A stretch of 63,255 nucleotides of DNA, filler included, from Reclinomonas americana ATCC 50394 (lineage: Eukaryota), in assembly GCA_048213135.1 (NCBI GenBank). It is 7 parts of 5 records of this genome, joined end to end, with 100 filler letters (N's around TTAATTAATTAA, not from the genome) between each part and the next. Parts side by side here need not be neighbours in the genome. Positions count along the whole stretch, not along the records: positions 61,595 to 63,255 come from PS015357.1; 6 more parts are not named here. One strand, written 5' to 3'. Position 1 is the first letter of the stretch; every line of letters starts with the position of its first letter. This document shows, piece by piece, positions 4,001 to 63,255 of the stretch. Position numbers and translations under genes: made by a program. Below the pieces are notes generated by a model that was not told the DNA's origin, did not search any database, and was given only the letters and a program-made list of their open reading frames with translations.

Positions 4001-7000
4001 CGCAAGTCGTCAGTGGCGGTGCGTGATGGAGACTTTTCTCGCTTGATTATCTCTTGTCCTCATCGCCGTCACTCGCAGTCGCAGGAACCGCCGTCGGCCA
4101 AGAGCGGCATGTCGCCAACAAGTCCTCGACCGCGCGCGGATTCGCATTCGTCGTCGGGGTCGCCCAAGACACCCGACATTCTCGGCGACCTCAGCTCCAT
4201 TCTCGCCAGTGGCTCCGACAATGACTGGCAGATTCGCATTCAGTCGTTCCGTGATATTCAGAGGTGCGGGGTTGGGGGGTGAAGGGGGGTGCTTGCTTGC
4301 TGTGGTTGTTTCCAGTTTTTATCTTGTTGATGGTGTTGGGTGTGTGCTTTTCCTCTTGCTCCTTGTTGGATTGCTTTTCCTTTTCTCTTGCCATTCTTGT
4401 TTGTTGTCGATTCCGTGCTGTGATGGTATTGTGAGGTGCTTCCTCTGCTTCTTGTTGTGATGCTTGTCTTTTTCCTCGTCACTTTGTTATTGTTTCTGCT
4501 GTTCTCTGTTGATGCTTTGTGATTGTGTTTCATCTTCTGTTTTGTAATGTTGCTGCCTGCTGCTTTGTTGCCGATTCCACGCTGCTGATGCTATCGAATG
4601 CGCTTTTCCTTCTGCCTCTTGTTGTGTTGCTGTTCTTTCCCCCTTTCACGCTGTTGCTAATCTTCTCCCTATATTTGCTCGCTCGCAGAGTGTCAAAGTC
4701 AGGTCGCTCGGGCGAAATCGCCAAGCACTTTGACAGCGTGTTGCACTTGCTGATGGAGAGATTGTCGGATCCGCATTTCAAGGTACTTGTCGAGTCCCCA
4801 CTGTCGTCTGCATGCTCTGCAGCTCTTCTCACTTCTACCATGCAGGTGGTCATTGCGGCACTGGAGGCACTGATTGATTTGGTGCCGGCGTATCGCACCA
4901 ATATGGAGAATTTGTTGGAGAGATTGTTGCCGCGCGGTTCGTTGTTGTGGTTCATCCCCTGCGATTAAGATGGTGGCTGACTGAAGTCTGTGTGTGTGTG
5001 TGTGATCGTGCAGTGATTCTTAATCTGTCGCACGCCAAGCAGCAGGTCAAGGAGTTGTCGTCGCAGGTGTTGGAAGTGATTGTGGCGAATTTTGCCAGTG
5101 AGGCGTTGCTTCCTGTGCTGTCCAAGGTGGGGAAATGGGAGGGGTGGATAAAGGGGGAGGGGGTTGAAAGGGGGAAAGGGTGGACGAAGGGGAAGGGTGA
5201 GAGGAGAAGAGAGGAACGAAAGAGGGGAGGGGCGAGAGGGGAAGATAGGAAGGAAAGAGGGGAAGGGTGAGAGGGGAAGAGAAGACGGAAAGAGGGGAAA
5301 AGAGGAAGGGTGGATAAAGGTGAAGGCTAAAGGGAAAGGGGGAGGGTGAGGGGGAAGAGAAGAAGGAAAGAGGGGAAAAAGGAAGGGTGGATACAGGGGA
5401 AGGCTAAAGGGAAAGGTGGGAGGGTGAGGGGGAAGAGAAGAAGGAAAGAGGGGAAAAAGGAAGGGTGGATAAAGGGGAAGGTTAAAGAGAAAGTGGGAAG
5501 GGTGAGGGGGAAGAGAAGAAGGAAAGAGGGAAGAGAGGAAGGAAAGAGGAAGGGTGGATAAAGGGGAAGGCTAAAGGGAAAGGGCGAAGAGTAAGAGGGG
5601 AAGAGGGGAAGAGAGGAAGGAAAGAGGGGAGGGGTGAGAAGGGAAATTGAAAGAGAATAGAGGATCGGTGAATTTGGAATGGTGAGAAGGGTGTTGAGAA
5701 GGGCGTTGAACAGAAAAGAGCTTTTACAAGGAGAGGTGCACGAGAAGAAGTGTTGGAGAAAGGAACTGGAGGTGGGATGGTGAATCGGCAGTAGTGAACT
5801 GTGCTTGTGGTTGGAAGTGCAGAGGGGAGCAATAGATGGAGAGCAGGTGGGATCGGACGATGAAGTGAGTGAATGTGGATGTGAAGGAGTAACTGATGGC
5901 GGGGAGCGTTTGCTGCTTGTGATTTGATACCATTACGCTCTTGGTGCTCATACCCTGATCCCAGGTCCTTGACAATCGCAATCCCAAGATCCGACTCGGC
6001 GCAATGGAATACTTGATGCACATCATCGGCCAGTCGCACGCGTACTTTTCGGCGGCATCACGTTTTGTGTCTTGCGCAGTTTCTTTCCCCTCCTCTCTGA
6101 CATCTCACTCCCCTTCGTTTTGCAGAAATGCGACTGTTCCTCAACCGACTGGTTGGGTTCACCGCCAACAAGAATGCCGATTTGCGCAAGGCCGCTGTGG
6201 CCACCACTGTTACTCTGTACAATGTTAACAAGGACGTATTCTTGTCGCAACTGGCGGTGCGTCGTGATTGTCATCATTTCCCACTGCTCGCTATTTGGTG
6301 ATCCTCATCGCCGCGCGTAGTGTCTGCCCGCTGCCGAGCAAGCGAGTCTGCGCAAGCTGATGCAACCGTATCTGGGAACGGATCTGGAGCTGGAGGTTCG
6401 CGCGCACTCTCGTCAGAAGCCGCCATCGGCGGCATCAAATCACTCCGCCTCTGGTTCCTCGGTGTCGAGTTCGTCGGCTGGCTCTGTACACGATGTTATT
6501 GTGCATCCGTATGGGGATCAAGACATGCCGCTGTCGTATCACGGCAGTGGGGCGTCCTCGGGCATGCCACGGTACACTGTGGATCTTGTGAGGTGCTTTG
6601 TTGGACACCAGTTCCTCACTCTTGTGTACTGCGCAGATCGTTGTCGCAGTCGCGACCAACTGCACCGTCGGCCGCGGCAGCAGCATCAGCGGCTCCGGCG
6701 ATTCCCATGACTGCGTCGTCACCGGTGGTGCCGTCCTCGCGGGCGCTTCCGCTCTCGTCCAGGAGTGCGGGGTCGTCGGCATCGGAGAGCAGTGTGATTC
6801 CGGATCCTGTTTTGTATCAGCAGAGGCAGGGAGGTGTGTGAAGGGGCAAAGAGGGAAAGGGGGCTTCGGGGGAAAGGGGGCTAGGAGTGAAATGGGGCTA
6901 CGAGGAAAAGGGGGCTACGAGGGAAAGGGGGCTACGAGGGGAAGGGGGCTAGGAGGAAAGGGGGTTACGAGGGAAAGGGGGCTACGAGGGAAAGGGGGCA

Positions 7001-10000
7001 AAGAGGGAAAGGGGGCGAAGAGGGAAAGGGAGCGAAGAGGGAAAGGAGGTTGGGAGGGAAAGGGGGCTAGGAGGGAAAGGGGGCTAGGAGGGAAAGGGGG
7101 CTAAGAGGGAAAGGGGGCTACTACAGAAAGGGGGCTACGAGGGAAAGGGGGCTAAGAGGGTGTTCGATTGCTGACTTTTCTGCGCCTTGTAGGACAAGCA
7201 CCGCTGGCGACCAACTAGTTGCGTCTGATGTCAGCTTTTCCATCACAGAAGCAATCCCCCTCATCATGTGTGCGTCCAGCGAACCTAGTCGACATGCCAA
7301 TGGCGCGTCGTCATATTCGTCGTCGTCGTCGTCGTCGTACGGGATTCCCGGCACTCCGGGTGTCAGCCACCCTGTATCAGCAGGGACGCCGATGCAACCG
7401 GCTGCAAGACCGATTCGGTCGAGCAGGTTTGTGTGCAGAAGCACGGCTGCCAATGATGATTGTAAGCTGATTTTGTTTGTCACAGTCCTGCTCGTGCGAA
7501 TATCGAGAGCCTGCTGGCGGGAAGTCCAAGCACGGCTGCTCGTACGGTGCGTTCTGCTGGGGGTTCGCCGATTTCCTGTGTCGCTGGATAATGACCATTT
7601 TTCCTTCCTACAATGCAGCAATCAAGTACCGCAACTGCCCCTGCCCCGGCTGCGTCTGCTCCGCGCTCGTCGACTGCCACGTCGTTGGCAACCAAGTTTG
7701 CATCACCAATGCGAGCAGGTGTGTGGGGAGGGGAAAGGGAAAGGGAGGAGCGAGGGAGAGGGAGGGAGGGAGGAGGGGGGGAAAGAAGGAGGCGGTTCTG
7801 TGAGACTTCGACAAGAAGTGTTGGTGAATGTAGATGCGAAGGGTTGGTGAGACAAGTAAGAGCAGGAGGGAGAGTAAGACTGTGAGGTTGGAAAGGAGAG
7901 CAGAAGGCAGTGAGTGTCGAATGGATTAATAATGGGGACAGCGAGTGCGACTGAGAGAATGAATTTTAGAGAGGCGGAATGGAGGATGTTGACTAAGAGT
8001 GGAGAATGTTGAGGGTGTTAGTATTGCGGGTTGGGGATGGAGTGTGAGAGCGATAGTGAGAGAGAAAGGAAAGAGAAAGTGCAGGAAAGGAAAGAGAAAG
8101 AGAAAGAGAGAAAGGAAAGAGAAGAGAAGAGAGAAGGAAAGAGAAAGAGAAAGAGAGAGAGAGAGAAAGGAAAGAGAAAGTGAGGAAGATCACATGCAGA
8201 GGGAGCGGAGAATATTGCGGGTTGGGAATGGAGTGTGAGAGCGATAGTGAGAGAGAAAAGAAAGAGAGAGGTAGGAGAGAGAAAGAGAGAAAGGAAAGAG
8301 AAAGAGATAAAGGAAAGTGAAAGTGAGAAAGTGAGAAAGATCACATGCAGAGAGAGCGGGAGTGTTGGGGTTGGGGATGGAGTGAGAGCGATAGTGAGAG
8401 AGAAAGGAAAGAGAAAGTGAAAGAGAGAAAGGAAAGAGAAAGAGAAAGTGAGAAAGATCACGTGCAGAGAGAGCGGAGAATATTGCGGGTTGGGGATGGA
8501 GAGTGAGAGAGAAAGGAAAAAGAGAGAAAGGAAAGAGAAAGTGAAAGAGAGAGAAAGGAAACAGAAAGAAAAAGTGAGAATGATCACGTGCAGAGAGCGC
8601 GGAGAATATTACGGGTTGGGGATCGAGTTTGAGAGCGACAGCGAGAATGAGTAAATGAGAATTGCGGCGCAGAAAGTACAGCCTGAGCCGGAGAGTTGAA
8701 TGTAGAGCAAGAGCGAGAGAGCTATAATGTGCGTATGAGAGTGTTAAAATTGAAAGGGAGAGTGAGCTCGGAGTTTAAAAGTGCAGAGAAGTGTGTGTGT
8801 GTGGGTGTGCGAGCGGGCAGTGAGGAAAAGCAAGTCTTTTTATGAGAGTGGGCCTCTTATGTGCACGTGACATCTTGTTGCTGATGTGGCTTCTTACATT
8901 GTTGCGATGCAGGTCCGCCCCGTCACACGACAGAAGAAGGCAGCGATCCGCACGAGGAGGAGACGGAGGTGTCGTGGGAGATTGAGTTCCCCACTCTCAT
9001 CTCGGATGCGCATTCGACCGGTGAGTTGATGTGGTGATTTCTGTGGATATTCGCTGTCATCGACACGATCCATTGTTGTGTGCACTTGAATCTTTTCTCG
9101 GTCTCCAGTGTGAGACTTGCGTGTGACCGCTGTGCATTGCCTCTCTTTTCCACAGCAGCGAGACTTGTCGTCTTATTGAGGTCACTGTTTTCCATCTCAT
9201 CTCGTCTTGAGAAATCATCACATAGGTTTCTTCTCATGGTTTCTGCGTGAGACTCGCGTGTGTTTCCTCGATGTGTAGCGTCTCTTTTTAAGAGCGAGGT
9301 TGTACTGCTGATTGTGTGGGAGTTTCAACGTGTTGAGGTCACTATGTTCCGTGTCGGTGGTTCCGTCGCACAATGCTTCTTCTCCCGGTCTTCTGCGACA
9401 CTCGCGTGCGTTTCCTCGGTGTATTGCGTCTCTTTTGAATTGTGAGAGTTGTCCTGTTGAGTTTCTGTGGTCACTGTAATTCCATCCTATCTGTTTTCGG
9501 GTTTCGTTGCACGTTGTTTCTTCTCACGGTCTTCTGCGTGAGACTCGCGTGTGTTTCCTCGGCGCATTGCCTCTCTTTTTGAATTGTGAGAGTTGTCCTG
9601 TTGAGTTGAGGTCACTGTGATTCCATCCTATCTCTTTTGGTTTTCGTCGCACATGCCTCGCGTTTGGTGCATTGCCTCTATTTCACAAGAGCAAGACTTG
9701 TCGTTCTGTCTGCACTTCATCATTGTGCATGTCCTCCTTCATGTGCTCATCAAATTCCGTGCCACAGGCGCTCGACGAACGACGGCGTTGCGCGGTCTCG
9801 TCCGCACGTGCTCCGAGGTGCACGCGAGCAGTGTGTGGAGCACGTACTTTTCGCAAGTACTGCTGGTGCTGCTGGAGTGCCTGGAGGATGCGGATGTTGC
9901 GTCGGGGAGGAGCTGTCCAGCCTCCCCTTTCCTGCGACTGACGCATTGTGTGCCGTGCAGGAAACCAATCGCGAATTGAGTCTGGTGGCCGTCAATCACT

Positions 10001-11660: not shown

Positions 11661-14600
11661 ATGAGCGAAGGAAGTGGCTCTGCACCACCGGCGCCACCGC
11701 CACCGCCTCCTCCACCAGCACCGACAGCAGCAGCAGCATCGTCACAGGCGGCATCGACAGCTGGACGACTGGTCATTCAGGTGACCATGTTGGAGGAGCA
11801 GCGGAAGAGGTAAAGAGGGATATTGAAGAGGGTGGGAGGGAGATGAAGAGAGGAAGGGGGGGGGGGGGGAGGGGGAGGGGAGGAGGGAGGAGGAGGAGGA
11901 GGAGGGAGGGTAGGGTAGGGGAGGGGAGGGGAGGGAGGAGAGAGAGAGAGAGAGCGCACTTCCGGAGAACATTAGTACGCATGCGTGTTTGCGTGCGTGT
12001 GTGAGTGTGTGTGCATGTGTGTGTGTGTGTGTATGCGTGGGAGAGAGAGGGATTCGAATATATATGTGTGTGCGTTGAAGTGCTTTTCCACATGAGGGTT
12101 TCGTTTGCATTTTGTGAGATGAGTGCGATGAGAGAGTGAAGAAGAGGGAAGCGCAGTGCACCCTCGTTGACATCCTCGAATGCAGCTTGCGCAAGACCGA
12201 AACGCGAGTCAAGACACGCGGCGACATGGGTGTTGCGTTGCATGCACGGTGGCATTGTGTGTCTTCTGCTCTCTCACGATGATGCCTCTCTGCAGCAACT
12301 GTCGGCCGACGACGAGGACGACGTAAATCGGAGGTGAGGGCCACGTTCACGTCGTCCTCTCCCTCCCTCTTTCTCACACCCTCTCGATTGCAGAATTGTG
12401 TCACCACGGACGCTGGCGGCGCGCGGCGTCCCCCAGTCACTGTGGATCTCCAAGAGTCGCGATGGAGCGTCGTGGCACGTCAGCGGGTGCCCGAGCCAGG
12501 AGTTTGTGACCCCTGAAGCGGTGGCTCGTGTGCGGGAACAGTTGGAGGCCACCGGCTTGCCAGTTTCGTGGGGCACACTCTCTGTCGCTGTGCTCCTCTC
12601 TGTCGCTTTGTTCCACTCTGTCGCTCTGTTCCACTCTGTCGCTGTGCTCCCCTCTGTCGCTATGCTACTCTCCGTCGCTGTGCTCCTCTCCTGTCACTGT
12701 GCTCCTCTTGTCGCTTTGTTCCACTATCGCTGTGCTCCTTGTGTCGCTGTGCTCCACTCTGTCGCTGTGCTCCTCCTCTATCGCTGTGCTCCTCCTCTAT
12801 CGCTGTGCTCCACTCTGTCGCTGTGCTCCTCTCCTGTCACTGTGCTCCTCTCCTGTCACTGTGCTCCCTCTCTGTCGCTGTGCTCCCTCTCTGTCGCTGT
12901 GATCCCTCTCTGCCGCTGTGCTCCCTCTCTGTCGCTGTGCTCCCTCTCTCTCGCTGCGCTCCCTCTCTGTCGCTGTGCTCCCTCTCTGTCGCTGTGCTCC
13001 GTCGCTGTGCTCTTCCTCTTGTCGCTCTGCTCCTCTCCTGTCGCTGTGCTCCTTCCTGTCGCTGTGCTCCTTCCTGTCGCTGTGCTCCTCTCCTGTCGCT
13101 GTGCTCCTCTTGTCGCTGTGCTCCTCTCNNNNNNNNNNNNNNNNNNNNNNNNNNNNNNNNNNNNNNNNNNNNNNNNNNNNNNNNNNNNNNNNNNNNNNNN
13201 NNNNNNNNNNNNNNNNNNNNNNNNNNNNNNNNNNNNNNNNNNNNNNNNNNNNNNNNNNNNNNNNNNNNNNNNNNNNNNNNNNNNNNNNNNNNNNNNNNNN
13301 NNNNNNNNNNNNNNNNNNNNNNNNNNNNNNNNNNNNNNNNNNNNNNNCCGCTGTGCTCCTTCCTGTCGCTGTGCTCCTTCCTGTCGCTGTGCTCCTCTCC
13401 TGTCGCTGTGCTCCTCTTGTCGCTGTGCTCCTCTCTGTCGCTGTGCTCCCTCTCTATCACTGTGCTCCTGTCGTCGCTGTGCTCCTCTCTGTTGCTGTGC
13501 TCCCTCTCTGTCGCTGTGCTCCCTCTCTGTCACTGTGCTCCACTCCTGTCGCTGTGCTTCTCCCTCTTGCCGCTACTCCCTCTCACCCTTCCCTCTCTAC
13601 CTCTCTCCCTTCCCGCCTCTCTCTCCTCATCCTCCCTCGCCTCCCAGGTCACCTGGGTGGCCACTCCGCTAACATACACCCGCTGGCCGGCGCACCGACG
13701 GATTGCTCCACGTCGCTTCGATGAGACCACGGGAAAGTGGGAAAAATGTGAAGAACCGGTGGCTGTGTCGGCGAGCGGCGAGGCACCGCGCGAGCTCCGT
13801 ATTATGCAGTGGAATGTGTGGTTTGACGAGCAGGATCAGGAGCGGCGAATGCGGGGTATATTGGTATGTAATCAGCCGCTTCCACCAAAGACGTGCATCG
13901 CAATGACCTCGCGCTTGCGTGCAGGCTGTGGTGGCTGCCGAGCAGCCGGACATTGTGGCGCTGCAGGAGGTGGTGACGGAGACGATGCGCTTCATCACAT
14001 TGGATCCGTACGTGCGCTCGCATTTTTACCTGAGCGATGGGCCGGCAGGTGGCACGCTTGGCCAGTATGGTGGGTGGCGCGGGAAGAGAGAAGAAGCGTC
14101 AAGTCGCTGACTCGGTTGATTTCACAGGCTCGGTCATCATGTCGCGGTATCCGCTCGACAACTTGTGCCTGTTCGACTTTCCGTCGCGCTTGAATCGCGT
14201 GTTGTTGTGGGGTACCATTCGTGTGGGTGGATCGGCGGCGCCGGCGGATGATGTGGTGGTGGGGACGGTGCATTTGGAGAGTTTGCAGCGGTCGGTGGAG
14301 TATCGGCAGACGCAGGTGGGTGGGGGTGGGGAAGGGGGGCAAAGGGGGAAAGGGGGAAAGGGGTAAAGGGGGATGGGAAGGCAGAAGGGAGAAGGGAGAG
14401 AGGAGGGAGAAGGGAGAAGGGAGGAGAGGGAAGGAAGCGGATGAGAGGGAAGAGAAGGAAGGGAAGGAGAGAGGAAGGAGAAGGAAGGAGAAGGAAGGGG
14501 GAAGGGGGAGGTGAAGGGGAGAGAGATACAGGGAGGAAGTGATGGAGAGGACGGCTCAAGGCGGTAGGAATTCTTCTGCGTGATTCTGCTTCATCCTTTT

Positions 14601-18799: not shown

Positions 18800-19312
18800 G
18801 GTGAAGGGTTGGGGGTGGAGAGAGACACTCATCGGTCAAGGGTTGAGGGTGGAGGAGACATTGATCACACGCACTCATCGGTCAAGGGCTGAGGGGTGGA
18901 GAGAGAGACACTAATTGCACACACCGATCAAGGGTTGATGGTAGAGAGAGACGCTAATTCCACGCATACGGATCAAGGGTTGAGGGGTGGAGAGAGACGA
19001 AGGGTTGAGGGTGGAGGAGAGACACTGATCACACGCACACACCGATCAAGGGTCAAGGGGTGGAGGAGAGACACTGATCACACGCACACACCGATCAAGG
19101 GTTTGAGGGGTGGAGAGAGACACTGATCACACGCACACAACGATCAAGGGTTGATGGTGGAGAGAGACACTGATCACACGCACACACCGATCACGGGTCA
19201 AGGGGTGGAGAGAGACACTGATCGCGCACGTACACACATCGATCAAGGGTGGAGGTGGAGAGAGACACTAGTACTGATCACCCACACACACACCAATCAA
19301 GGGTTGAGGGTG
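18800..19312. repeat. ~45-48 bp tandem repeat array, ~11 units
   Basis: Unit ~'gagagagacactgatcacacgcacacaccgatcaagggttgaggggtg'; related array at 28241-28450. Confidence 0.9.
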
Positions 19313-20382: not shown

Positions 20383-21739
20383 CGATCACCTACGCGCAGC
20401 CGTTCAACAAGGTGCCGCGGTTCCTGTTCGGTTTCGCCGCGTACACGGGTGCCTCGCTCAATGGCGCTGTTGCCGTCGACACCAACTTTGCGTGCACGGT
20501 GTTGAGCAACTTGACGTCGTCCACCGGCAATACCATCAGCTGCAGCTCGGCTGGTGCTGCGACGAGCAGCACCGTGATTCGTTGCGTCTTTGTGCAGGCA
20601 GAAGGGGGGGTTGCAATACTGCCTTTGACTCTTGCATCACAAAACTCCCTCTGTCTCTCTTTCTTTCTGTCTCTGTCTCTCTCTGTCTCTCAATCTCTCT
20701 GTCTCTCAATATCTCTGTCTCTCAATATCTCTGTCTCTCAATATCTCTGTCTCTCAATATCTCTGTCTCTCAATCTCTCTGTCTCTCAATCTCTCTGTCT
20801 CTCAATCTCTCTGTCTCTCAATATCTCTGTCTCTCAATATCTCTGTCTCTCAATCTCTCTGTCTCTCAATATCTCTGTCTCTCAATCTCTCTGTCTCTCA
20901 ATATCTCTGTCTCTCAATATCTCTGTCTCTCAATCTTTCTGTCTCTCAGTCTCTCTCATCTCAGTCTCTCTCTTTCTCTCCTCCTCTCTCTTTCTCTCTC
21001 TCTCTCTCTGTCAACTGCTTCCCTCAGCATGACTGAATCTCTCTCTTTTTTGTGACGCAGAGTCGCTCTTTCGCTTGACTCTTCAACATGTGATCCATGC
21101 TCTCCTTTTGCCCTGACTTTCTGAATACTACAACTGGACTCGGCTCCTCCTCCGTGATGCAGAGTCGCTTTCTTTTGCTTGATTTTCTTAACATCTGGTC
21201 TCTCCACTCTATTTGCCCCAAATCTCTGAGTACTGCAGTTGGACTATGTTTCTTCCTCTACGGCGATGTGCAGAGTCCTTCATCACCTGCTCTGTCGCTG
21301 TTATTCAAGCGTGCTAAGTTGACACCGAGAATGTGGTCATTTCTCTCGTTCACGCGCGGTTTGAGAGAACCCTTTCTTCTCGGTACTCCTTCATTACCGA
21401 CGACTGACAACCCACCCTCCTGCCATTTCCAACTTCTAATGTGATAGTTGTTGGTAGACACTCAGAGGCTTCGGGAGAAGAACGATTAGGAACCAACTCA
21501 TCTCAATTTTGTCGTCTCCTATCGTTCAACTTTTGTATACTTGTCCCCCACTTTGCCACTCAACCATTTACCAAACCTCGCTGTGCAGAGTACCTGGCAT
21601 TCGCGCAGGCAAGCAGCATGGTCAGCGCCAATGGCCTGGTGAGCCGCTCCAACAGCAGCGCCTGGAACTCGACGTCCACCAGCAAGAACAGCACTCTGGT
21701 TGCGTGCCACCTGCAATGCATTTTCTGGCAGTGCGTAAG
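20383..21739 (+). CDS. H-type lectin-like domain protein, partial at both ends
   Basis: 'ITYAQPFNKVPRFLFGF..' joined across intron 20581-21588 to 'QYLAF'; this resembles the H-type lectin pattern I-x-F/Y-x3-F-x3-P ... Y-x-A. Confidence 0.5.
20660..20945. repeat. Intronic 18-bp minisatellite (tctctgtctctcaata/tc)
   Basis: About 15 near-perfect tandem units. Confidence 0.9.
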
Positions 21740-21839
21740 NNNNNNNNNNNNNNNNNNNNNNNNNNNNNNNNNNNNNNNNNNNNTTAATTAATTAANNNNN
21801 NNNNNNNNNNNNNNNNNNNNNNNNNNNNNNNNNNNNNNN
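21740..21839. other. Artificial contig-joining spacer (N-TTAATTAATTAA-N)
   Basis: TTAATTAATTAA (stops in all six frames) embedded in Ns; the same spacer occurs at 29688, 40762, 47891, 59609 and 61539. Confidence 0.97.
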
Positions 21840-22196: not shown

Positions 22197-23793
22197 ATGT
22201 CGGTGAGTGGGGGGACGCGAATCCGAACACACCACACGCGGAAAATCATCACTGTCGTCATTACTTGCGCATTCTGTCTGCGTGCCTGTGGTACAGTTCT
22301 CTGTGTCCGTGAGTGCGGCGCATGATTCGTCGCTGTCGGTGGTGGTGGAGGGCGTGACGGCCATGTCCACTCTCGCAGACTTGCTGCGCGAGGCCACTCG
22401 CTTGCTGCGAGAGAAGAGTGGGAATGGGGCGATGAAGATTGTGGGAGTGGAGAAGCCGCTGTCACTCGACATTGAGGAAGGAGGAGGGATGGAACTCGAG
22501 GATCTGGGTATTTCTGCTCACACGCCACTCATAGTGCGACTGGCCGTGACAGATGACCTTGCGAGCGCGCCAGAGGCCAGTGGCGGATCGAGTGCGAGGT
22601 ACGTAAAGATTGATCATCGCGCGATGTGCATTGTGGATTCGATGGGCTAACTGATGCGTGAATGCGCAAACAGGATAATTGGCGCCCATCGTGTGAGTGT
22701 TCTGCCGCCTCCATCTCCTCACGTTGCTTCTTCCGCTCGTCGCTCTTACTCATTGTACTTTTCCCAGGTCTTGAAGGGACACACACACGCTGTGCGATCC
22801 GTGTGCATCACGCCCTGTGGTGAATTCATCGTGAGTGGAAGTCTCGACAAAACAGTGCGAGTGTGGTATCTGGCGACTGGTGAGGAAGTGCGTCGGATGC
22901 AGGGACACACTCGTGGCGTGACCTCTGTCGCCGTCGCCCCCGACGGCCAGCACGTTGTGAGCGGCAGTCAAGATAAGACAGTACGCGTTTGGTCGCTGGC
23001 GAGTGGCGAGGAAGTGCGACGGTTGGAGGGGCACACTTACTGGGTGTGGTCTGTTGCTGTCACTCCCGACGGTCGGTACATCGTAAGTGGGGGAGATGAC
23101 CAATCAGTTAGAATGTGGTCTCTGGCAAGCGGAGAAGAAGTGCGAAGGATGGAGGGACACACTGGCTCTGTGTCCGCCGTCGCTGTTTCTCCCGATGGCC
23201 AGTTCGTGGTGACCGGAAGCTACGATACGACTGTGCGCATGTGGTCGTTGACGAGCGGGGAAGAAGTTCGTCGACTGGAAGGACCCAGTTGCTGGGTGTG
23301 GGCAGTTGCAGTGCCTCCCGATGGTCACCATGTTGTGAGCGGGAGTGACGACAAGATCGTGCGCATGTGGTCTCTGCAGAGTGGGGAGCGAGTGCGACAG
23401 CTGGTGGGACACGCCGGTCCAGTGTATTCTATCGCTGTCACTCCCGATGGGCAGCAGTTTGTATGCGGGAGCGAAGGAACGGTGCTTGTGTGGTGTGCAT
23501 CGAGTGGAGAAATGGTACAACGGTTGCCTGGCCACGTTGGGGAAGTGTGGTCTGTGTGTGTATCAGCAGATGGGCAGCATATTGTGAGTGCAGGGTCGGA
23601 CGAGACGATACGGATGTGGTCGACGCCACATGGCCTCGCCCGTATCGAACTCGACAGTGCGCGTTCGGCGCTGCAGGCTGTCATGGAAATGGAACGCGGT
23701 GCGCAGAGGACGGCGGACTCGCATTGTCTGCCGGAGACTGTGCTGCGCCGTTGTATTGTTGAAGACGCCGAAGTTGTTTTCTACCGTTGCTGA
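22197..23793 (+). CDS. WD40-repeat protein (7 repeats) with N-terminal ubiquitin-like domain
   Basis: Exons 22197-22202, 22297-22598, 22674-22692 (19-nt micro-exon restoring phase), 22768-23793. Seven 'GH..V.SV..PDG..IVSGS.D.TVR.W' repeats. N-terminus 'FSVSV..STLADLL..LEDLGISAHTPLIV' resembles a beta-grasp fold. Confidence 0.85.
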
Positions 23794-24292: not shown

Positions 24293-27200
24293 TCACTCCC
24301 TCTGCTGCTCCTCGACCAACTCCCGCAGAAATTGCACCACACCATCGTGCTCATTCTCCACGGCGCACAGCAGCGGCGTTCGGCCCCGCGAGTCCACTGC
24401 TCGCGCCACAGACGGCCGCTGCCGCACCAGAAACTGCGTCATGGCCAGACATCCACTGGCGGCGGCACAGTGAAGCGGTGTGGCATTGTCGGAAGAGCGC
24501 ACCAAATCCAGCAACTCTGGCTGTCGTTCCACCAAGTAACGCGCGACGTCCACATCGTCGACGCGGACGGCAACGTGCAGCGGCGTGCTCCCGTCGGCAC
24601 ACGCCGCCAGCAGAGACATGTGCATGCGCTCCGTCAAGAACTTCAGCACACGCACACTGTGACGCCAGCAGGCCAGGTGCACTGCAGAGGCGCCGGTCAG
24701 GCAGCCACCACCGGCTGTAATGGCGAAATCCAGGCATGACCCCTGCTGCTGCTGCTGCTGCTGCTGCTGCCGATCGACCAGAAACTCGACCACTTCCAGG
24801 TGATCGCCGGACGCTGCGGCGTGCACAGGGGCCCAACCGTCTTCGTCGCGTACCTCCGCCATCTCCGGTCGAGCGTGCACCAGTCGCCGCACGACTTCCA
24901 GGCGCCCGGCAGCTGCGGCAAAGTGCAGCGCCGTGGCGCCACTGGTGGCGACAGCTGACAGTAGCGCCTCCGCTCCGTCCTGCTGAAGCAGCCAGTCCAC
25001 CATCTCCACACTGCCTCCCCACGCAGCTTCGTGAAGTGGGGTACTGCGGGCAGAAGTGAGCAGCGAGAGCGCGGACGGCTCATGTTGCAACATGCACCGA
25101 GCCGAGGCCACACTGCCGCTGCCACATGCGCAGTGAAAGGCACTCATGTCGTTTGTCGACGGTGCGCGCACCAGAATCAGTGACGGGTCCTCTTGTACCA
25201 AGAATTCGACAATGGCCACGTGGCCGCACGAGGCGGCGAGGTGCAGCGGCGTCGCTCCGCTGTGATTGGCGGTGCGAACCAGACTCGGCTGCTGCCGCAC
25301 CAGCAACTGGAGGACGTCAAGGTGACCGGCTGTCGCCGCTGCGTGGACGGGCAACACACCATTGCTGTTGGCGCACCCGAGGAGCGACGGCTCGCGCTCC
25401 AACAGCACCTGCACCGTCGGCAAGTGACCGCCGGCCGCAGCGAGGAGCAATGCGGTCATGCCCTCCGCACCCTCCAACGTGGCGGTCGCCGACACGTTGA
25501 CCACGTGCGGCGGTTGCCGACACAGCACTTCAACGGTGCTCTGATCGCCGTTCAAAGCCGCCATATGCAGCGGGGTGAGACCGTCCGGAAAATCAACCGT
25601 AGCCAGTGTTGGTCGCTTCTCCAGCAGGTACTCGACCACCGCCGCGTGCTTGTTGCTGACAGCGATAAAAAGGGCGTTGGCACCGTGACCGGTGGTGGCC
25701 GTGATCAGCGCTTCGTCCTGCAGCTGTTCCACGATGAAGCGTACAATGTCGAGGTGGCCCTTGCCGGCGGCCACGTGCAGCGCGTTAATGTTGGTGCCGC
25801 CGTCAGAGGAAGCCATGACCGCGGCAACGTCGACCGCACCACCGCGCAGCGACTCTTGGCACAGGTACTGAAAGACGGCGACCGAGCCCGAATCGGCCGC
25901 CGCCAGCAGGGGCGTGACGCCGCGCTCGTACTCGACAGTCAGCACCTCCGGGTGCTTCTCCACCAAGTAGCTCACCGCCGCCAGGTTGTCAATGGCCGCT
26001 GCCAGGAGCATCGGCGTCAGCCCTGCCGTCTTCGTGACGTTGAGCAGGGCCGGACGCTGTGTCACCAGCAGCTGCACCACATCGATGTGGCCGTATGCGA
26101 TAGCCACGTGGAGCGCTGAGCCGAAAGTCGGGATCACACAGTCAGCGAGACTCGGCTCCGCTTGCAACAAGAACTGCGCGACCTCCGCCGCGCCCACTGT
26201 GGCTGCCGCGTGCAGGGGAGTGGCGCCATCAGTGGAGGTGACGTGGAGCAGCTCTGGAAATCGTCGCACAATGTACTCGACAGCGGCACGGTGGCGGAAG
26301 AAAGCAGCGGCGAACAAGATGGACATGCCCTGCATACCGGGGACGGTGGCGGCTTGCTCCGGCAAAGGGAGGTCGAGCACGTGGTGCACGAAATGCGGGC
26401 GCTGTCGCACAACAAACTCCAGGGCCTCGACAGATCCGCCAATGGCCGCAGCGTGTAGCGCGTTGCAGCCGTCCATGTCAACGCTGTCCAACAGTGCGGG
26501 ATCGCGGGAGAACACACGTTCAGCCGCCGCCCATTTGCCTGCGCACAACCCTGTCAAGAATGGGTTCACCATTTGCTTGTCGAGGCGGTGCAGCAGCGCC
26601 GGTCGCTGCTCGAGCACAAAGTCGACGAGGGCGACACTGCCGCCGCTGACCGCCGCGTGCAGCAGCGATTCGCCGCTGTCGTCGGGGGCGACGGCATCCA
26701 GCAGTGACGGGTCGGCGGTGATGAGTTGGCGTGCGAGGGAGTCGTCGCCGTCGCGGGATGCTGAGGGAGATGAAGGGGAAGGGAGATGATGGGAAAGGGA
26801 AGGGGGGACGTGAGAGAGGGAGAGAGGGAGAGGGAGAGGGAAGAGGGAAGAGGGAAGAGGGAAGAGGGAAGAGGGAAGAGGAAGAGAGGAGAGGGAAGAG
26901 GGAAGAGGGNNNNNNNNNNNNNNNNNNNNNNNNNNNNNNNNNNNNNNNNNNNNNNNNNNNNNNNNNNNNNNNNNNNNNNNNNNNNNNNNNNNNNNNNNNN
27001 NNNNNNNNNNNNNNNNNNNNNNNNNNNNNNNNNNNNNNNNNNNNNNNNNNNNNNNNNNNNNNNNNNNNNNNNNNNNNNNNNNNNNNNNNNNNNNNNNNNN
27101 NNNNNNNNNNNNNNNNNNNNNNNNNNNNNNNNNNNNNNNNNNNNNNNNNNNNNNNNNNNNNNNNNNNNNNNNNNNNNNNNNNNNNNNNNNNNNNNNNNNN

Positions 27201-28240: not shown

Positions 28241-28450
28241 ACTCACGCGCACACACCGATCACAGACTGAAGGTGCAGGAGAGACACTGATTGCACACGC
28301 ACACAACGACCAAGGGTTGAGGGCGCAGAGAGACACTGATTGTATGAATACACCGATCAAGTGTTGAGGGTGGAGGAGAGACACTGATCGCACGCACACA
28401 CTGATCAAGGGATGAAGGTGGACAGAGACACTGATTGCACGCACACACAC
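28241..28450. repeat. Second array of the ~47-bp tandem repeat, 4-5 units
   Basis: 'gagacactgattgcacacgcacacaacgaccaagggttgaggg' units match 18800-19312. Confidence 0.85.
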
Positions 28451-29643: not shown

Positions 29644-29743
29644 NNNNNNNNNNNNNNNNNNNNNNNNNNNNNNNNNNNNNNNNNNNNTTAATTAATTAAN
29701 NNNNNNNNNNNNNNNNNNNNNNNNNNNNNNNNNNNNNNNNNNN
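29644..29743. other. Artificial contig-joining spacer
   Basis: TTAATTAATTAA at 29688-29699 within Ns. Confidence 0.97.
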
Positions 29744-33300: not shown

Positions 33301-36300
33301 CCCTCAACAGCCCCTGATGTTGAACATGATTGTCCTGGTGATGGATGATCTGGAACGGATGGAGCACCATCATGACGGCGGTGATCAGGTTGCAGCATCC
33401 GTGACGCGAGTGACTCGTGCACGGCTGTATGAGGCATTTGCCAAACACAAACTGCGCTGGGAATTTGAGCATCACCAAGTGCACATTTGTCAGGTGTGTT
33501 GTTGTTGGTGGCTGTTGTTTGTCAGTGTGTGGTACGTCTGCTCACCTGGTTGTACACGCGCAGTTATATGGTGACGGTGAGTCGGAAGACGATTTTTGCC
33601 TGCGAGTGTTGGACTTTTGCTCGGAGCTTGCCGGCGAGATGATGCAACACTCGCTGACTTCTGTAAGGCAAGGGAAGCTCGAGGTTTGTATGTTTCTTTC
33701 TTATTCTTCTGCATTTCCTGCCTCTTACCCTTCATCTCTCTCCCTTCGCAGTGCACTCAGCAAGCCATTGCAGAGCAACATGTGTGGAACAAGTGGTTTG
33801 ATCGAGATGACCCGCTGCAGAACTCTCTTGTTCGCGCTGTTGCGTTTTCGCGATGCAACCTCTCCCGTCGTCATATGTGTCCTTGCGTTCTCAATGGACA
33901 GGACGAGGCAGGCATTGCTGAAATGGAGCCGACTTGGAGCATCACAACAGCGTGTGGAGTTCATGCACAAATCGGTGCTGGAGTACTTTGCCGCTCAGTC
34001 GTGGCTGGCCGATGTGCGGCTGTTGGTCAATGAGGAGGTGGGGTTGGAGGTGAGCATCGTCGTGCTTTGCTGATTGTGCCAGTTGTATGATTGCCGACAT
34101 TTCTTCGTGCAGGATCGACTCGACAGACTGTGCTCCAGCTTCAGTGGCCAGCGGACGCTTCTCACATCGGATGAAGTGAGTGCACTGTTCCATTGACCTT
34201 TTTCGCTTCTGTGTTCACTTTTTTCGATGGTCCCAGGGCCTCAACTCCATTCTATCGTTCGTCGCCGAGCAAGTGCAGCCAGATGTGTCTCTCCATGACA
34301 CGCTGTGGAAGGTCCTTGCACTCTCTCGCACGGAGGAGAGAGTCGCAGCCGTGTCATCAAGTGCGGCCAGTGCGTTGTGCCTCGCGGAGGTGTCATTTAG
34401 TGGGCGAGATCTGTCGGGAGTGCGAATACCAGGTGCCGACTTGAGGGATGCTGTGATGCACAGAACGGTGTGGAAGGGGGCGGATTTGCGAGGGGTTAAT
34501 GTGTGCTCGGCTTTTGCGAGAGAGGCGGATTTCAGAGGGGCGGATGTGACGGGCGTGTCATGGCCAAGAATGCCAATGATTGGGCATGGTGGTCATGTGT
34601 GCGCTGTTGCTATCACTCCCGATTGTCAGTACATCGTAAGTGGCAGTGCTGACAAGACTGTTCGAGTGTGGTCAATGGCGAGTGGGGAAGAAGTTCGACG
34701 ACTAGAGGGGCACGCTGGATGGGTATTCTCTGTCGCTGTCGTCCTTGGTGGTCGGTACATTGTAAGCGGCAGTGATGACAGGACTGTGCGCGTGTGGTCA
34801 TTGGCGAGTGGCAAGGAATTACGACGGTTGGCGGGGCACACTGAGTCGGTGTACTCTGTCGCTGTCACCCCAGATGGTGAACACACTATTAGCGGGGGTA
34901 ATGACAAGACAGTCAGGGTGTGGTCTTTGGCAAGCGGGGAAGAATTGCAGCGGATGGAGGGTCACACTGCTGCAGTTTTATCTGTCGATGTCGCTTGCGA
35001 TGGTCAGCACATCGCAAGCGGTGGAAATGACGGAACTGTTCGAATTTGGTCACTTGCGAGTGGAAGGGAAGTCTTACGGTTGGAAGCGCACAGCAGGGCT
35101 GTAAATTGTGTCACCTTCACTCCCGATAGCGTGTACGTTGTGAGTGGCAGTGACGATGTGACAGTGCGCTTGTGGTCGCTGGCAAGTGGTACAGAAGTGC
35201 GACGGCTGGTAGGACACGTCTCGCCAATTTATGATGTTACCGTTACTCCAGATAGCCAGTATGTTGTGAGTGGAAGTGCCGACAATACACTGCGACTGTG
35301 GTCGCTTGCAAGTGGGGAGGAAGTGAAGCGCTTAGAGGGGCACGCTGATAAGTTGTACTCTGTTGCCGTCACTCTCAATGGTCAATGCATTGTGAGCGGC
35401 AGTGGGGATGGAACAGTTCGACTGTGGCCCATGGCGAGCGGAGAACAAGTGCGACGGTTGGATAGATGGGTCGAGGAAGTGCTGGACGTCGCCGCATCAC
35501 CTGATGGGCAGTACGTCGTTAGTGGTGGCATGGACGCGTCTTTGCAAGTACGGTCATTGGCAACTGGAAGGGAAGTGCGACGACTGGAAGGACACACTGA
35601 TGCAGTGTGTTCTATTGCTTTCACCCCCGACGGTAAGCACATTGTGAGTGGTAGCCGTGATAATACAGTGCGTATGTGGCTTCTCTCGAGTGGTGAGGAG
35701 ATACGACGGTTGGAGGGCCACAATGGTTCTGTGGGTTCTGTAACTGTTACTCGCGACGGTCTGTGCATCGTGAGTGGCAGCTGTGATATGACTGTGCGAA
35801 TGTGGTCGATGGTGAGTGGAGTGGAGGTGATGCAAATGAGGGGACACACTGGTGTTGTGACCTCAGTCGCTATCTCTTCCGATGGTCCGCACATTGTGAG
35901 TGGCAGTCACGACAAGTCGGTGCGAGTGTGGTCAATGGCAAGTGGTAAAGAAGTACGACGGCTGGAGGGACACACTGGCTGGGTGTGGTCAGTTGCCGTT
36001 ACGCCCGATGACAAGCATATAGTAAGTGCAAGTCACGACTGGACAGTGCGAGTGTGGTCAATGGAGACTGGGTTGGAAGTGCGACAGTTGAAGGGTCATG
36101 ATGGATGATGGAGAGGCGAACTCTGTCGCTTTCACTCTCGATGGTCAGCACATCGTGAGCGGCGGTTATGACAAGACTATTCGAGTGTGGTCACTGACAA
36201 CTGGAGACGAAGTTCGACGGTTTACCGGGCACACCGACACTGTGACGTTTGTTGCAGTTGCTCCCAGCGGTCAATTCCTTGTGAGTATGAGCGACGATCG

Positions 36301-40717: not shown

Positions 40718-40817
40718 NNNNNNNNNNNNNNNNNNNNNNNNNNNNNNNNNNNNNNNNNNNNTTAATTAATTAANNNNNNNNNNNNNNNNNNNNNNNNNNN
40801 NNNNNNNNNNNNNNNNN
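40718..40817. other. Artificial contig-joining spacer
   Basis: TTAATTAATTAA at 40762-40773 within Ns. Confidence 0.97.
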
Positions 40818-47846: not shown

Positions 47847-47946
47847 NNNNNNNNNNNNNNNNNNNNNNNNNNNNNNNNNNNNNNNNNNNNTTAATTAATT
47901 AANNNNNNNNNNNNNNNNNNNNNNNNNNNNNNNNNNNNNNNNNNNN
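47847..47946. other. Artificial contig-joining spacer
   Basis: TTAATTAATTAA at 47891-47902 within Ns. Confidence 0.97.
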
Positions 47947-59564: not shown

Positions 59565-59663
59565 NNNNNNNNNNNNNNNNNNNNNNNNNNNNNNNNNNNN
59601 NNNNNNNNTTAATTAATTAANNNNNNNNNNNNNNNNNNNNNNNNNNNNNNNNNNNNNNNNNNN
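59565..59663. other. Artificial contig-joining spacer
   Basis: TTAATTAATTAA at 59609-59620 within Ns. Confidence 0.97.
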
Positions 59664-61109
59664 NGGGTGTGTGGCCTTGTTCGGCGTGATCTCTCTCTCC
59701 TCCTTCCCTCCCACTCACTTCATCCATGCAGGCCGTGCACGACACGGAGTGTGTGACGAGGTGGTACAATGGTAGCTTGGTTGGTGAATCGTTTTCGATC
59801 CCGACTGGCAAGTCGGAGCGAATCGATTATGCGCGCTCCTTGGTTGCTGCTGTCACTGCCGAGTGACCATGGTGGTGGCCACAGGAGACTGCAGGCACGT
59901 GCGAGGCCAGCAACATACGGTGCGTGTGTGTTCTACACGTGCGTTGAGGAGCAAGTTGGCGAGACTTGGAGATTTGACTGACTCGATTCTGTGCGTGATA
60001 TGAACACAGGCGTGCTGGCAAGTGACTGGCATGCGAAGACACGTGGTTCCGTGCCTTACAGTACATGCATGAGACGATTCACCGACCGAATGTGAGTGTG
60101 ATTGAAGGCACGAAACATTGATTGTGACTTGGGTGAGGGGAGGCAAGTCTCACGCCACCGCTGCCTCTTCCGTCGCTGTGCTACTGTGCTGGTCGTTCCT
60201 CTCTTGTTCCTTGTGACTCTCCTTCTTCATTGTACCATCATCAACCTTGCTGTGGGCTGGTTCAAGGAGGTGTGAGGTTTCGATGACTCCGTGCTCATCG
60301 GTTTCTCGGGTGTGCTAAGCCTGTGTGGCGTCAGTACAATTGCAACAGCTGCACATCCAAGCAGCCCGACATGCCAGTCCTCGTTGAGAGAGAATGCAGA
60401 TCAGTCAAAAGGCAATGTTGCTGAACAGCAGCACGGTGCAGTGGAGCGCCAACCTCGTGTCACCACCACCACGTAACCTTGCATGTCCATTCTGTCGATT
60501 TAAATTTCGCATAGACGAGTCCCATGTCGGTCTTCGAAAGCTCACTCGCATCATGGGAGTCACATCACTCACACACTACCGCATGCTGTGTGGGGTGCTG
60601 GCTGTAGCCTGGCGAGGGATGGACGACGTCTCGGAGCAANNNNNNNNNNNNNNNNNNNNNNNNNNNNNNNNNNNNNNNNNNNNNNNNNNNNNNNNNNNNN
60701 NNNNNNNNNNNNNNNNNNNNNNNNNNNNNNNNNNNNNNNNNNNNNNNNNNNNNNNNNNNNNNNNNNNNNNNNNNNNNNNCACGCACGCACGGAGAATGGC
60801 AACAAAGGTGAATGTGTGCGCACTTTTGCGTGGTCGGTGTCTGTGCGTGCATTCGTGTGCTCGTGCTTGTGTGCGGTCGTTGTTTGTGTGTTTGTGCATG
60901 TGCGTCTCACCACGAATGGTCGGNNNNNNNNNNNNNNNNNNNNNNNNNNNNNNNNNNNNNNNNNNNNNNNNNNNNNNNNNNNNNNNNNNNNNNNNNNNNN
61001 NNNNNNNNNNNNNNNNNNNNNNNNNNNNNNNNNNNNNNNNNNNNNNNNNNNNNNNNNNNNNNNNNNNNNNNNNNNNNNNNNNNNNNNNNNNNNNNNNNNN
61101 NNNNNNNNC

Positions 61110-61494
61110 ACAGATCATTCAGAGTCTCGCTTCCTCAGTGAGGTCCGTCGCCGTCACTCCCGATTGCCAGCACATTGTTAGCGGGAGCTGGGACTGCACA
61201 GTGAGAGTGTGGTCTCTGGCGAGTGGCAAGGAGGTGCGACGGCTGGAGGGACACGCTGGCGGGGTGTACACTGTCGCCGTCACAAATGATGGTCAGCACG
61301 TCATCAGCGGCGGCTGCGACAACACAGTGCGGGTATGGTCAATAGCGAGTGGCGAGGAGGTTCGACGATTGAAGGGACACTCCCGGGAGGTGCAGTCAGT
61401 TGCCGTCACACCAGATGGTCATCACATCGTGAGTGGCAGTGGGGATAGCACAATTCGGGTGTGGTCACTGGCGAGTGGTGAGGAAGTGCGTAGA
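61110..61494 (+). CDS. WD40-repeat fragment (3 repeats), same repeat family as 22768 and 34580
   Basis: 'VRSVAVTPDCQHIVSGSWDCTVRVWSLASGKEVRRLEGH..'; bounded by gaps. Confidence 0.85.
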
Positions 61495-61594
61495 NNNNNN
61501 NNNNNNNNNNNNNNNNNNNNNNNNNNNNNNNNNNNNNNTTAATTAATTAANNNNNNNNNNNNNNNNNNNNNNNNNNNNNNNNNNNNNNNNNNNN
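61495..61594. other. Artificial contig-joining spacer
   Basis: TTAATTAATTAA at 61539-61550 within Ns. Confidence 0.97.
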
Positions 61595-63255
61595 TGGTGT
61601 GATGGCCACTTGCATTGACGGATCGTCCGGATCTGTGCATCGCCCAAACAGAAGATGAGCACAGAGCGTTCAAAACTCCGCTGCATTTCTCTCGTCTCGC
61701 GCACCCGGGATAATGTCCTGCACGGTGGCATACTCGAGCTTCTTGGTGATTTCGTGCAGACGCCGATGTGCGACATCCAGTCGATCCCTGTAGGGAGTGA
61801 CCGTGGCCATCAACTCGGCGTGCAGCACCGCGTTGAGAACCCAGCTGCACAGACCCTGTGCGAGACACGAAAGAGTCGGAATAGGGCATGAAGAGATCGA
61901 AAACCCTCGAAGTATTGGTTGGCAAACCTGTGCCGCCTTGGAGATCTTGCCGACAGCATGCGGCGTGAATGCCGGGTCCTCCGTGTATGTCTTGACACGG
62001 CGCAACACTTGCGGCGTCAACTGCGTCTCAAAATCGTACTCCAGCAGCTGCTGTCGAAAGCGCGCCCCCTGCAACGTCTCCTTGGCGGCGTCAACCGTCT
62101 CAGGCCGGCCCAACAATACCATCACCGCTTTCAACACCTACACGTCGACCGGCGGGTTCAGAAAATGTGCATCGATCCGCATTGCTCCCCCCGAACTGCC
62201 ACGCAACATTCTCGACGAGTGGCGGTGCGTGCGCAAAGTAGCGCAATTGATTAATGTCGGAGAGTGCCACACTCGACAGCGACAGCAGCGAGGATTCGAC
62301 CAGCGGCGCCACTCCTTCGTACTCCTTCTCAGCTAACCGCACGGCCTCCAGCGCTTGATCACGCTCCAGCAACAGGCGACTAATGTCACTCCGACGACGC
62401 TGTACCGGGCGCAGTGAACAAGCCAAACGCAGACAAACAAAAGCATTCTCATGCATGCAAATATATGCACACCTTGGTGGAGAGTGGCGTCGTCGGCGGC
62501 ACATCGACATGTAACCTCCGACTGACGCGATCCAGTCCCTCTTGTGCCAGGCGCGCCAGTTGCCGCACCGGATCGAGGCGGTGCGTCATCAATCCAAATT
62601 TCTCCATACTGGAGGCCCAGTGGAACAGGCCAACAGCGGGCGGACACGTGGCCTCCACCGTCTTCCCAACGCACACATGAGGAAAATAAAGGCACACATT
62701 GCACATTTCTCGCCAAAAAAACTCACCTGTAACCGAAACTCGGGACGCTTGGTGTACTCGGCCGCCTGGATGAGCATGGTGGGCGAGATGGTGCCACGAT
62801 TAAAGTAAATAAGCTGTCGCAGACAGCTGGACTCCTTCAGCCACACTCGTGCCGCGCTCAGCGTCGGTGGCTGGCAGAGGAACACCATGATGACTTTGAG
62901 CACGGTCTCCACCTGACGTCGTCATTCGGTGAGTGATTAGGAAGACCATAGGATCACATGCACAACACATACCGGCGACGAAAGGAGCGGCAGAGAGCGC
63001 AGCTTGTGCACATCTTGCATGGAGAGGGCAGAGATGCCGGCCAGGTAGCGGTTGAGAGCGGGACCGCTCTTGCGCAGCGCACCGTCGGCCGCATCGCGGA
63101 TGCGCACAAGACGTCGCTGCAGCGCCGTCAACTCCTCCTCTCCGAGTCGATCCAGCGCCGCCTCGCTGACCTCCGACTCGCGCAGACGCATCTCGTTGAC
63201 ATCGTCGTCGGGAGGCGTGATCCAAATGGTGCCGCGCTGCTGACGCGCGGCCGCC
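61595..63255 (-). CDS. Protein with two tandem dynein heavy-chain stalk/microtubule-binding (MT) domains; partial at both ends
   Basis: Repeat 1: 'PALNRYLAGISALSMQDVHKLRSL..P|VETVLKVIMVFL..RPEF..|..AVGLFHWASSM..LDPVR'. Repeat 2: 'APLVESSLLSLSSVALSDINQLRYFAHAPPLVEN|VLKAVMVLLG..DPAFTPHAVGKISKAAQ|GLCSWV..VTPYR'. Confidence 0.75.

Follow-up and report, generated by a model that had tools for sequence, protein, structure and literature searches.

Two dynein microtubule-binding stalk tips in tandem, with no motor module between them, on a contig of Reclinomonas americana

Introduction

Dynein has a single microtubule-binding domain (MTBD), the affinity of which is set by the AAA ring through the stalk. 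In the portions of PMC6629372 drawn on here, the MTBD is described as a six-helix domain that caps an antiparallel coiled coil and docks on the tubulin intradimer interface; its affinity is toggled when the AAA ring shifts the coiled-coil registry by half a heptad. This report concerns a gene of Reclinomonas americana ATCC 50394 (assembly GCA_048213135.1) in which two such stalk tips follow one another with no AAA module between them. The gene lies on contig PS015357.1, which is the last part of a 63,255-base stretch of joined genome records; we refer to this whole stretch, which is the DNA that was analyzed, as the window.

Tandem microtubule-binding repeats are familiar from tau, MAP2, MAP4, and doublecortin, in which several weak sites on flexible linkers provide avidity. 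The Reclinomonas gene would have only this proposed principle in common with them, as they are not homologous to the MTBD and have different folds. The closest relative by sequence is the stalk tip of axonemal inner-arm dyneins (DNAH6 and DNAH2; PDB 8j07, 9fqr, and 9d2f; PF12777), in that a gap-free alignment of either Reclinomonas unit takes in the six-helix MTBD, the adjoining distal coiled coil, and both prolines of the junction. Unlike these dyneins, the Reclinomonas contig has two MTBDs, short stubs in place of a stalk, no flanking AAA4 or AAA5, and a higher degree of divergence. The seryl-tRNA-synthetase-MTBD fusions (3ERR, 6RZA, and 6RZB) likewise consist of an MTBD and a short stalk taken off the AAA ring, and such engineered stand-alone fusions bind microtubules with their registry fixed, according to the portions of PMC6629372 already cited; they differ in being artificial and monovalent, with the registry set by the fusion partner. 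DNAHX is likewise a dynein derivative without motility, but it retains an entire heavy chain, in which all six AAA modules are present and the single stalk carries insertions, and the available portions of PMC11785096 report it absent from protists.

The nearest architectural match is found among motor-less proteins with several MTBDs, which are known from sequence collections only. A search of the literature, in which supplements such as the orphan lists of PMC5100056 were outside the search, turned up no account of proteins with MTBDs in tandem or without a motor, and the portions seen of PMC5100056 (orphan dyneins), PMC11785096 (DNAHX), PMC6629372, and PMC5549309 make no mention of them.

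Results

The gene was read from the contig in three frames, with splice sites set where the dynein-like frame switches. All dynein similarity of the contig lies on the minus strand and is distributed over six exons, separated by five introns that are, without exception, GT-AG and in phase 0. The reading frame stays open for 403 codons through the six exons, and the spliced product is correspondingly 403 residues long (Table 1). The GC content of the coding sequence is 0.61 (0.74 at third positions), compared to 0.49 for the introns.

A first-pass annotation of the window had proposed two successive MTBD units at this locus, and both are real. Canonical dynein fragment P0003 matched the 403-residue product twice, each time over its full length and without gaps, at residues 80-200 (23.2 bits) and residues 266-387 (73.8 bits). 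An MTBD profile, built from the 44 units of the fetched proteins that passed a coverage filter (with the units of four near-duplicate proteins omitted), gave 52.3 bits (3e-18) for unit 1 and 106.5 bits (5e-35) for unit 2, and a whole-stalk profile of 395 positions, built from 10 canonical dyneins, gave 58.4 bits for unit 1 (positions 106-271) and 134.0 bits for unit 2 (positions 119-274); both profiles derive from proteins retrieved with unit 2 and are hence not independent for that unit. The highest scores reached in 1000 shuffles per unit were 2.5 bits for unit 1 and 6.3 bits for unit 2, against 60.0 and 136.1 bits for the real sequences. The Pfam MT family (PF12777) matched the unspliced unit 2 open reading frame (ORF) with an E value of 2.8e-8 and 33.6 bits, at a cut-off of 24, and the best PDB match of the same ORF was DNAH6 (E = 6.5e-7). 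Exon 2 of unit 1, searched alone against the PDB, returned six matches at E ≤ 10, all six of them axonemal dynein heavy chains aligned at the MTBD, with DNAH2 the best (E = 0.0047). Exons 2 and 5, which hold the corresponding parts of the two units, are 33% identical by BLASTP (E = 1e-9). The spacing of some 40 to 50 residues given in the annotation was about right, since the stalk-profile matches are 33 and the MTBD-profile matches 66 residues apart, and the near-canonical motif it had pointed out in unit 2 is present, with intron 5 splitting KISKAAQ from GLCSWV.

Of the stalk, only a distal stretch is represented in either unit, within positions 106-274 of the 395-position profile. The MTBD is preceded by ~35 first coiled-coil (CC1) positions in unit 1 and ~22 in unit 2, and is followed in each by a short stub of the second coiled-coil segment (CC2). 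A proline-rich, basic linker (VDVPPTTP...KRRRS) begins ~25 residues past MTBD 1, within exon 3. Exon 3 thus passes from the CC2 stub into the linker, and this makes unit 1 non-canonical however exon 3 is joined to exon 4. The KRRRS of the linker (62397-62425, minus strand) stands directly before the unit 2 CC1 stub, and it resembles a basophilic kinase site, hence, speculatively, a possible point of regulation. A home-made heptad score flagged almost all of the protein and carried no information, and no coiled-coil call was drawn from it.

No AAA or other non-MT dynein family of Pfam (AAA_6, AAA_7, AAA_8, AAA_9, and Dynein_heavy among them) was found when the exons and ORFs of the contig were scanned. 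When two full-length and two partial dyneins, together with three multi-MTBD proteins, were compared with the whole window by tblastn, only the region of unit 2 (exons 4 to 6) was matched. Where a dynein heavy chain has one MTBD between AAA4 and AAA5, the contig has two, with stubs and a linker between them, and where a heavy chain has a long stalk with ~100 residues each of CC1 and CC2, the contig has stubs only. The layout is not that of a dynein heavy chain, since the two modules run in the same direction, are spliced consistently, and have between them neither an AAA module nor room for one. The tandem motor-less layout is confirmed within the contig, and this much of the annotated non-motor, multi-MTBD protein stands; that the whole protein is motor-less is plausible from a gene model that closes at 393 residues, and is made more likely by the occurrence in other eukaryotes of complete motor-less proteins with two to five MTBDs. 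The alternative raised with the annotation, that the units belong to two separate dynein gene fragments, was rejected, there being no room for a motor and the splicing being consistent across the join.

Six identical joints (44 N, TTAATTAATTAA, 44 N) divide the window into seven unlinked pieces, and the remaining N runs, of 20-686 nt, are ordinary scaffold gaps. The part with the gene is the last of the seven, 1.66 kb in length, and the window end cuts its 63255 side; on the other side the joint is artificial, so that sequence left of 61595 cannot be assigned to the gene. The position of intron 4, the donor of which is the weakest of the five, was fixed by aligning unit 2 to unit 1 and to canonical MTBDs. 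Intron 5 is in frame and free of stops, for which reason the raw ORF at 61670-62137 runs straight through it, and its sequence is an insertion relative to every dynein compared, among the PDB matches as well as by tblastn. Exon 6, read straight on, ends in a TGA at 61670-61672. The model closed by this stop and by the ATG at 63191 encodes 393 residues (44 kDa, pI 9.2), and the simplest reading is that this would be the complete protein.

Table 1. Coordinates of the gene, its units, and the artificial joints, numbered along the window
Feature	Position	Strand	Remarks
Contig with gene (PS015357.1)	61595-63255	gene on minus	left border, joint 61495-61594; right border, window end
Spliced product	starts with 62973-63254, ends at 61705	-	403 residues
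Unit 1 module	62509-63131	-	residues 42-207 of the 403-residue product; distal-stalk stub, diverged MTBD, stub
Unit 2 module	61724-62336	-	residues 241-397 of the 403-residue product; distal-stalk stub, near-canonical MTBD, stub
Candidate start ATG	63189-63191	-	residue 22 of the open frame, directly before the unit 1 CC1 stub; inferred
Exon 1	62973-63254	-	upstream segment with WITPPDDD, unit 1 CC1 stub, beginning of MTBD 1
Intron 1	62913-62972	-	60 nt, GTATGT...CAG, phase 0, in-frame stops
Exon 2	62727-62912	-	MTBD 1 core, N-terminal part
Intron 2	62662-62726	-	65 nt, GTGAGT...AAG
Exon 3	62473-62661	-	MTBD 1 C-terminal part, short CC2 stub, proline-rich/basic linker
Intron 3	62400-62472	-	73 nt, GTGTGC...CAG
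Exon 4	62208-62399	-	linker end, unit 2 CC1 stub, beginning of MTBD 2
Intron 4	62138-62207	-	70 nt, GTTGCG...TAG
Exon 5	61928-62137	-	MTBD 2 core, N-terminal part; ends ...DPAFTPHAVGKISKAAQ
Intron 5	61856-61927	-	72 nt, GTTTGC...CAG
Exon 6	61670-61855 (61705-61855 if there is a sixth intron)	-	GLCSWV..., end of MTBD 2, CC2 stub
Artificial joints	21740-21839, 29644-29743, 40718-40817, 47847-47946, 59565-59664, 61495-61594		from the N-run listing

Over the whole module the two units are 25% identical (38 of 151 columns), and no DNA-level repeat was found between them. Given this low identity, the retention of the junction prolines in both units, and the lack of a DNA repeat, the duplication appears to be an old one that was kept in frame. 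A recent duplication or an assembly collapse was rejected on the same absence of a DNA repeat. We compared the units at the 41 columns that are conserved in at least 70% of 44 canonical MTBD fragments. Unit 2 is identical at 25 of these columns (30 counting similar residues) and unit 1 at 14 (25 counting similar residues); the canonical fragments themselves are identical at 26 to 41 columns, with a median of 36, and 11 units of motor-less multi-MTBD proteins at 12 to 34, with a median of 26. Both units are accordingly more diverged than all 44 canonical fragments and within the range of the multi-MTBD proteins. Retained in both are the stalk/MTBD junction prolines, the P.F motif, and the tryptophan of helix 6. 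Such a pattern is consistent with units no longer constrained by a motor, yet by itself it cannot tell a new function from decay.

In per-domain scores unit 2 is closer to canonical dyneins (73-93 bits) than to multi-MTBD proteins (55 bits at most). A tree was calculated for 52 MTBD units, after five near-duplicate proteins and the units not spanning profile positions 15-100 had been dropped. Units 1 and 2 fell together with nine canonical units in a group of 11 rows, at a support of 88/89, which is below the starred level of the tool, and the group holds none of the 22 multi-MTBD units. Its canonical members include units of P0043 and P0056, two proteins with cluster mates that come from Percolomonas and Flectonema. 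The branch of unit 1 is very long (3.1), and its placement is unsure. Common descent with the known multi-MTBD proteins was not recovered among the 52 units; an independent origin from an inner-arm-type dynein would be the better, if weakly supported, reading of the tree.

Proteins of like architecture occur in other eukaryotes. A full HMMER search with the unit 2 ORF against 1.84 billion representatives returned 59 matches, and a Pfam scan took in 12 of these. Eight of the 12 have two to five MT stretches, with no other Pfam family reaching its cut-off: five stretches in P0004, four in P0032, three each in P0008, P0012, P0040, and P0048, and two each in P0014 and P0051. Among the other four, three combine MT with AAA_9 and one has a single MT stretch. 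By cluster look-up, P0051 is a complete ORF of 386 residues with two units from Diphylleia rotans, and P0061, from the dinoflagellate Tripos fusus, has 979 residues and, by Pfam, three MT stretches and no AAA; P0076 has three units. Altogether, at least two units are present in 12 of the 102 fetched proteins having any unit, near-duplicates counted. Motor-less multi-MTBD proteins occur also in metagenomes. Of 384 pattern matches on metagenome contigs, none encodes a relative. A single HMMER match fell below 1e-10, to P0002, a repeat protein rich in cysteine and histidine; its best alignment lies at query residues 87-127, near where the read-through intron ends, and the match was judged spurious.

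The Reclinomonas gene resembles P0004, P0061, P0012, P0032, P0040, P0048, P0076, P0014, and P0051 in having several MTBDs per chain, placed tens of residues apart, with MT the sole Pfam family at cut-off, and its 393-residue model is about the size of the Diphylleia rotans protein. Some of these proteins, P0051 for example, are almost without coiled-coil stubs, unlike the Reclinomonas units. AlphaFold models were made for two of them, and they describe these proteins from other organisms and not the Reclinomonas product. For P0040 the mean predicted local distance difference test score (pLDDT) is 77.8, with three modules above 90 and linkers below 50; for P0051 it is 79.2, with two modules above 90 and a disordered linker and tail. 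Foldseek matched P0040 to 8i3j (E = 1.2e-10), 6rza_X (template-modeling [TM] score 0.86, root mean square deviation 2.2), 2rr7, and 3err, and P0051 to 3err_A (E = 8.1e-7), 6l4p_B (TM score 0.79), and 6kio_M (TM score 0.80). The models portray both proteins as predicted MTBD beads on a string. Transcript-derived ORFs and confident fold predictions underlie the wider finding that distant protists have complete motor-less proteins with several MTBDs, and the case for it is stronger than that for the single Reclinomonas contig.

Two further observations were made on these proteins. The first MTBD of P0040, a dinoflagellate-type protein, has a predicted two-strand insertion (residues ~187-208) between helices 2 and 3, at the site of the "flap" that many axonemal dyneins have, and this insertion is absent from both Reclinomonas units. 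A protein atlas queried with P0051 and P0004 returned scores of 0.82-0.86, too low to count, to small MT-domain clusters, mostly from molluscs, which serve as leads only. The mollusc-rich clusters have 51-93 members each, proteins of 136-180 residues of which 14-54% carry the MT domain; either fragments of genes or free-standing animal MTBDs could account for them.

The other parts of the window contain several repeat families. WD40 repeat arrays with a DNA period of 126 nt are present on three contigs, at 22651-23793, 34180-36108, and 61110-61494, all on the plus strand. The repeats are highly alike (VAVTPDG..SGS.D.T.RVWSLASGEEVRR), and their close likeness on three contigs suggests a large WD40 gene family that expanded recently. 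An open frame of 871 residues at 24293-26908 (minus strand), consists of ankyrin repeats over nearly its whole length (Ank_2, E = 1e-106) and enters a 686-nt gap. A tandem repeat of 47-49 nt is common to two contigs, at 19000-19269 and 28248-28448, with the shared core CACACCGATCAAGGGT...GGGTGGAGAGAGACACTGAT, and represents a satellite-like element in dispersed form. Further tandem repeats, either purine-rich (GA/GGA) or CT-rich and with a period between 16 and 151 nt, lie at 5252-5630, 6843-7160, 8093-8635, 12578-13562, and 20649-21014, and one such array adjoins a 219-nt gap; these repeats account for the strong GC skew of the first contig.

Discussion

We consider it somewhat more probable than not that a small, basic, motor-less protein with two MTBDs is encoded, in full or for the greater part, on this contig, and that it may act as a passive microtubule binder. 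Both modules would derive from an axonemal inner-arm-type dynein heavy chain, through an old duplication, and each would represent the distal end of the stalk, with a CC1 stub of ~20-55 residues, a six-helix MTBD, and a CC2 stub of ~25-30 residues, the two being joined by the proline-rich basic linker with no AAA+ motor between. We infer microtubule binding, and with it a cellular role, from these features of the sequence. Each module would fold into a short antiparallel coiled-coil hairpin bearing its MTBD. Unit 2, which has kept most of the canonical motifs, would dock at the tubulin intradimer interface as a dynein MTBD does, without ATP-driven control of registry, and unit 1, having lost the PP and S.AA motifs, may bind more weakly, may have lost binding, or may serve another role. 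With nothing to drive a registry shift, each module would rest in the state that its stub favors; a free MTBD reportedly rests in the low-affinity state. Two weak sites on a flexible basic tether would add up to avidity. A protein with this property could passively tether microtubules, cross-link them, or form a roadblock at the site used by dynein and kinesin, whose sites on the microtubule are said to overlap.

Several observations weigh against a protein of this kind. The gene was read from genomic sequence alone, on a 1.66-kb contig of a fragmented and gap-rich assembly, and both of its ends should be taken as candidates. At the 5' end the frame is open also through the 21 codons upstream of the ATG at 63191, up to the window end, and the site of this ATG could equally be a phase-0 acceptor (..GAG|ATG). 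At the 3' end a donor at 61704 possibly opens a sixth intron after exon 6; beyond it there is a short Pro/Asp-rich stretch faintly like the WITPPDDD segment before unit 1, perhaps a weak hint of further units. Pfam MT gave no match to unit 1 when the separate exons or the pieces of the unspliced ORF were scanned, these pieces being too short. No close relative was present among the 59 HMMER matches from the 1.84 billion representatives, and a word-index search returned, with the unit 2 ORF and among longer proteins, one weak dynein fragment and, with exon 2 of unit 1, nothing. The Reclinomonas units do not group with the known multi-MTBD proteins, which would therefore count as analogues and at most as possible relatives. 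Finally, the conserved tryptophan before helix 3 and the DKDNI motif are missing from both units, and unit 1 additionally lacks two motifs, PP ahead of helix 2 and S.AA in helix 6; given these losses, microtubule affinity may be low or lost.

Some of these observations can be turned into other explanations of the locus. The exons might belong to a large aberrant dynein-like heavy chain, with AAA modules beyond the contig and a duplicated stalk tip that makes a forked or serial double MTBD. The two open gene ends would allow it, as would the higher scores of unit 2 against canonical dyneins than against multi-MTBD proteins and the weakly supported grouping of both units with canonical axonemal MTBDs, and orphan or non-motile heavy chains with stalk insertions do exist (PMC5100056 and, for DNAHX, PMC11785096, in the portions seen of each). 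Such a chain should, however, have more of the stalk: neither unit matches the proximal 105 CC1 positions or the proximal ~120 CC2 positions of the stalk profile, and helix breakers stand both upstream of the CC1 stub (WITPPDDD) and past the CC2 stub (..IIPG). Since, in addition, the model from ATG to stop closes within the contig, and the window holds no AAA sequence, although its other contigs are unlinked to this one, we regard the aberrant heavy chain as unlikely.

About as improbable, in our estimate, is a decaying relic, that is, a fragment of a duplicated dynein gene that has lost expression and function. It would agree with the want of a close orthologue in the protein collections searched, with a gene read from genomic DNA, with the loss from both units of residues conserved in at least 70% of canonical MTBDs, and with a tiny contig in a repeat-rich assembly. 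Neutral sequence at 25% identity between units would not, however, hold 403 codons open, nor would neutral decay keep five GT-AG phase-0 introns, a gapless pattern of hydrophobic core residues, the junction prolines, and the bias to GC at third positions. The fragmented, gap-rich state of the assembly leaves room for a chimera of MTBD regions from two dynein genes, but we think it very improbable: the units share no DNA repeat able to mislead an assembler, unit 1 departs from the canonical form inside exon 3, and the join would need to fall in the 73-nt intron while preserving its phase and splice sites. A small motor-less protein with two MTBDs is accordingly the reading that we favor.

A wider proposal, which we hold more tentatively and at rather less than even likelihood, is that the MTBD was excised and multiplied independently several times, in dinoflagellates, Diphylleia, and Reclinomonas among others, giving rise to an undescribed class of ATP-independent microtubule-associated proteins with one to five MTBDs. 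The Reclinomonas gene would be an independently derived, two-unit member that arose from the stalk tip of an inner-arm dynein. If this is true, proteins of the class would occupy the dynein/kinesin site of the lattice, and on axonemal or cortical microtubules they could cross-link passively or could slow or gate the motors. They would thus hint at possible regulators that act by competing with motors for the docking site. A natural motor-less string of MTBDs would show the MTBD to be a portable microtubule-binding module, and would offer natural minimal constructs for the behavior of the domain without registry control. It would also be an example of a new small gene carved from one that encodes more than 4000 residues.

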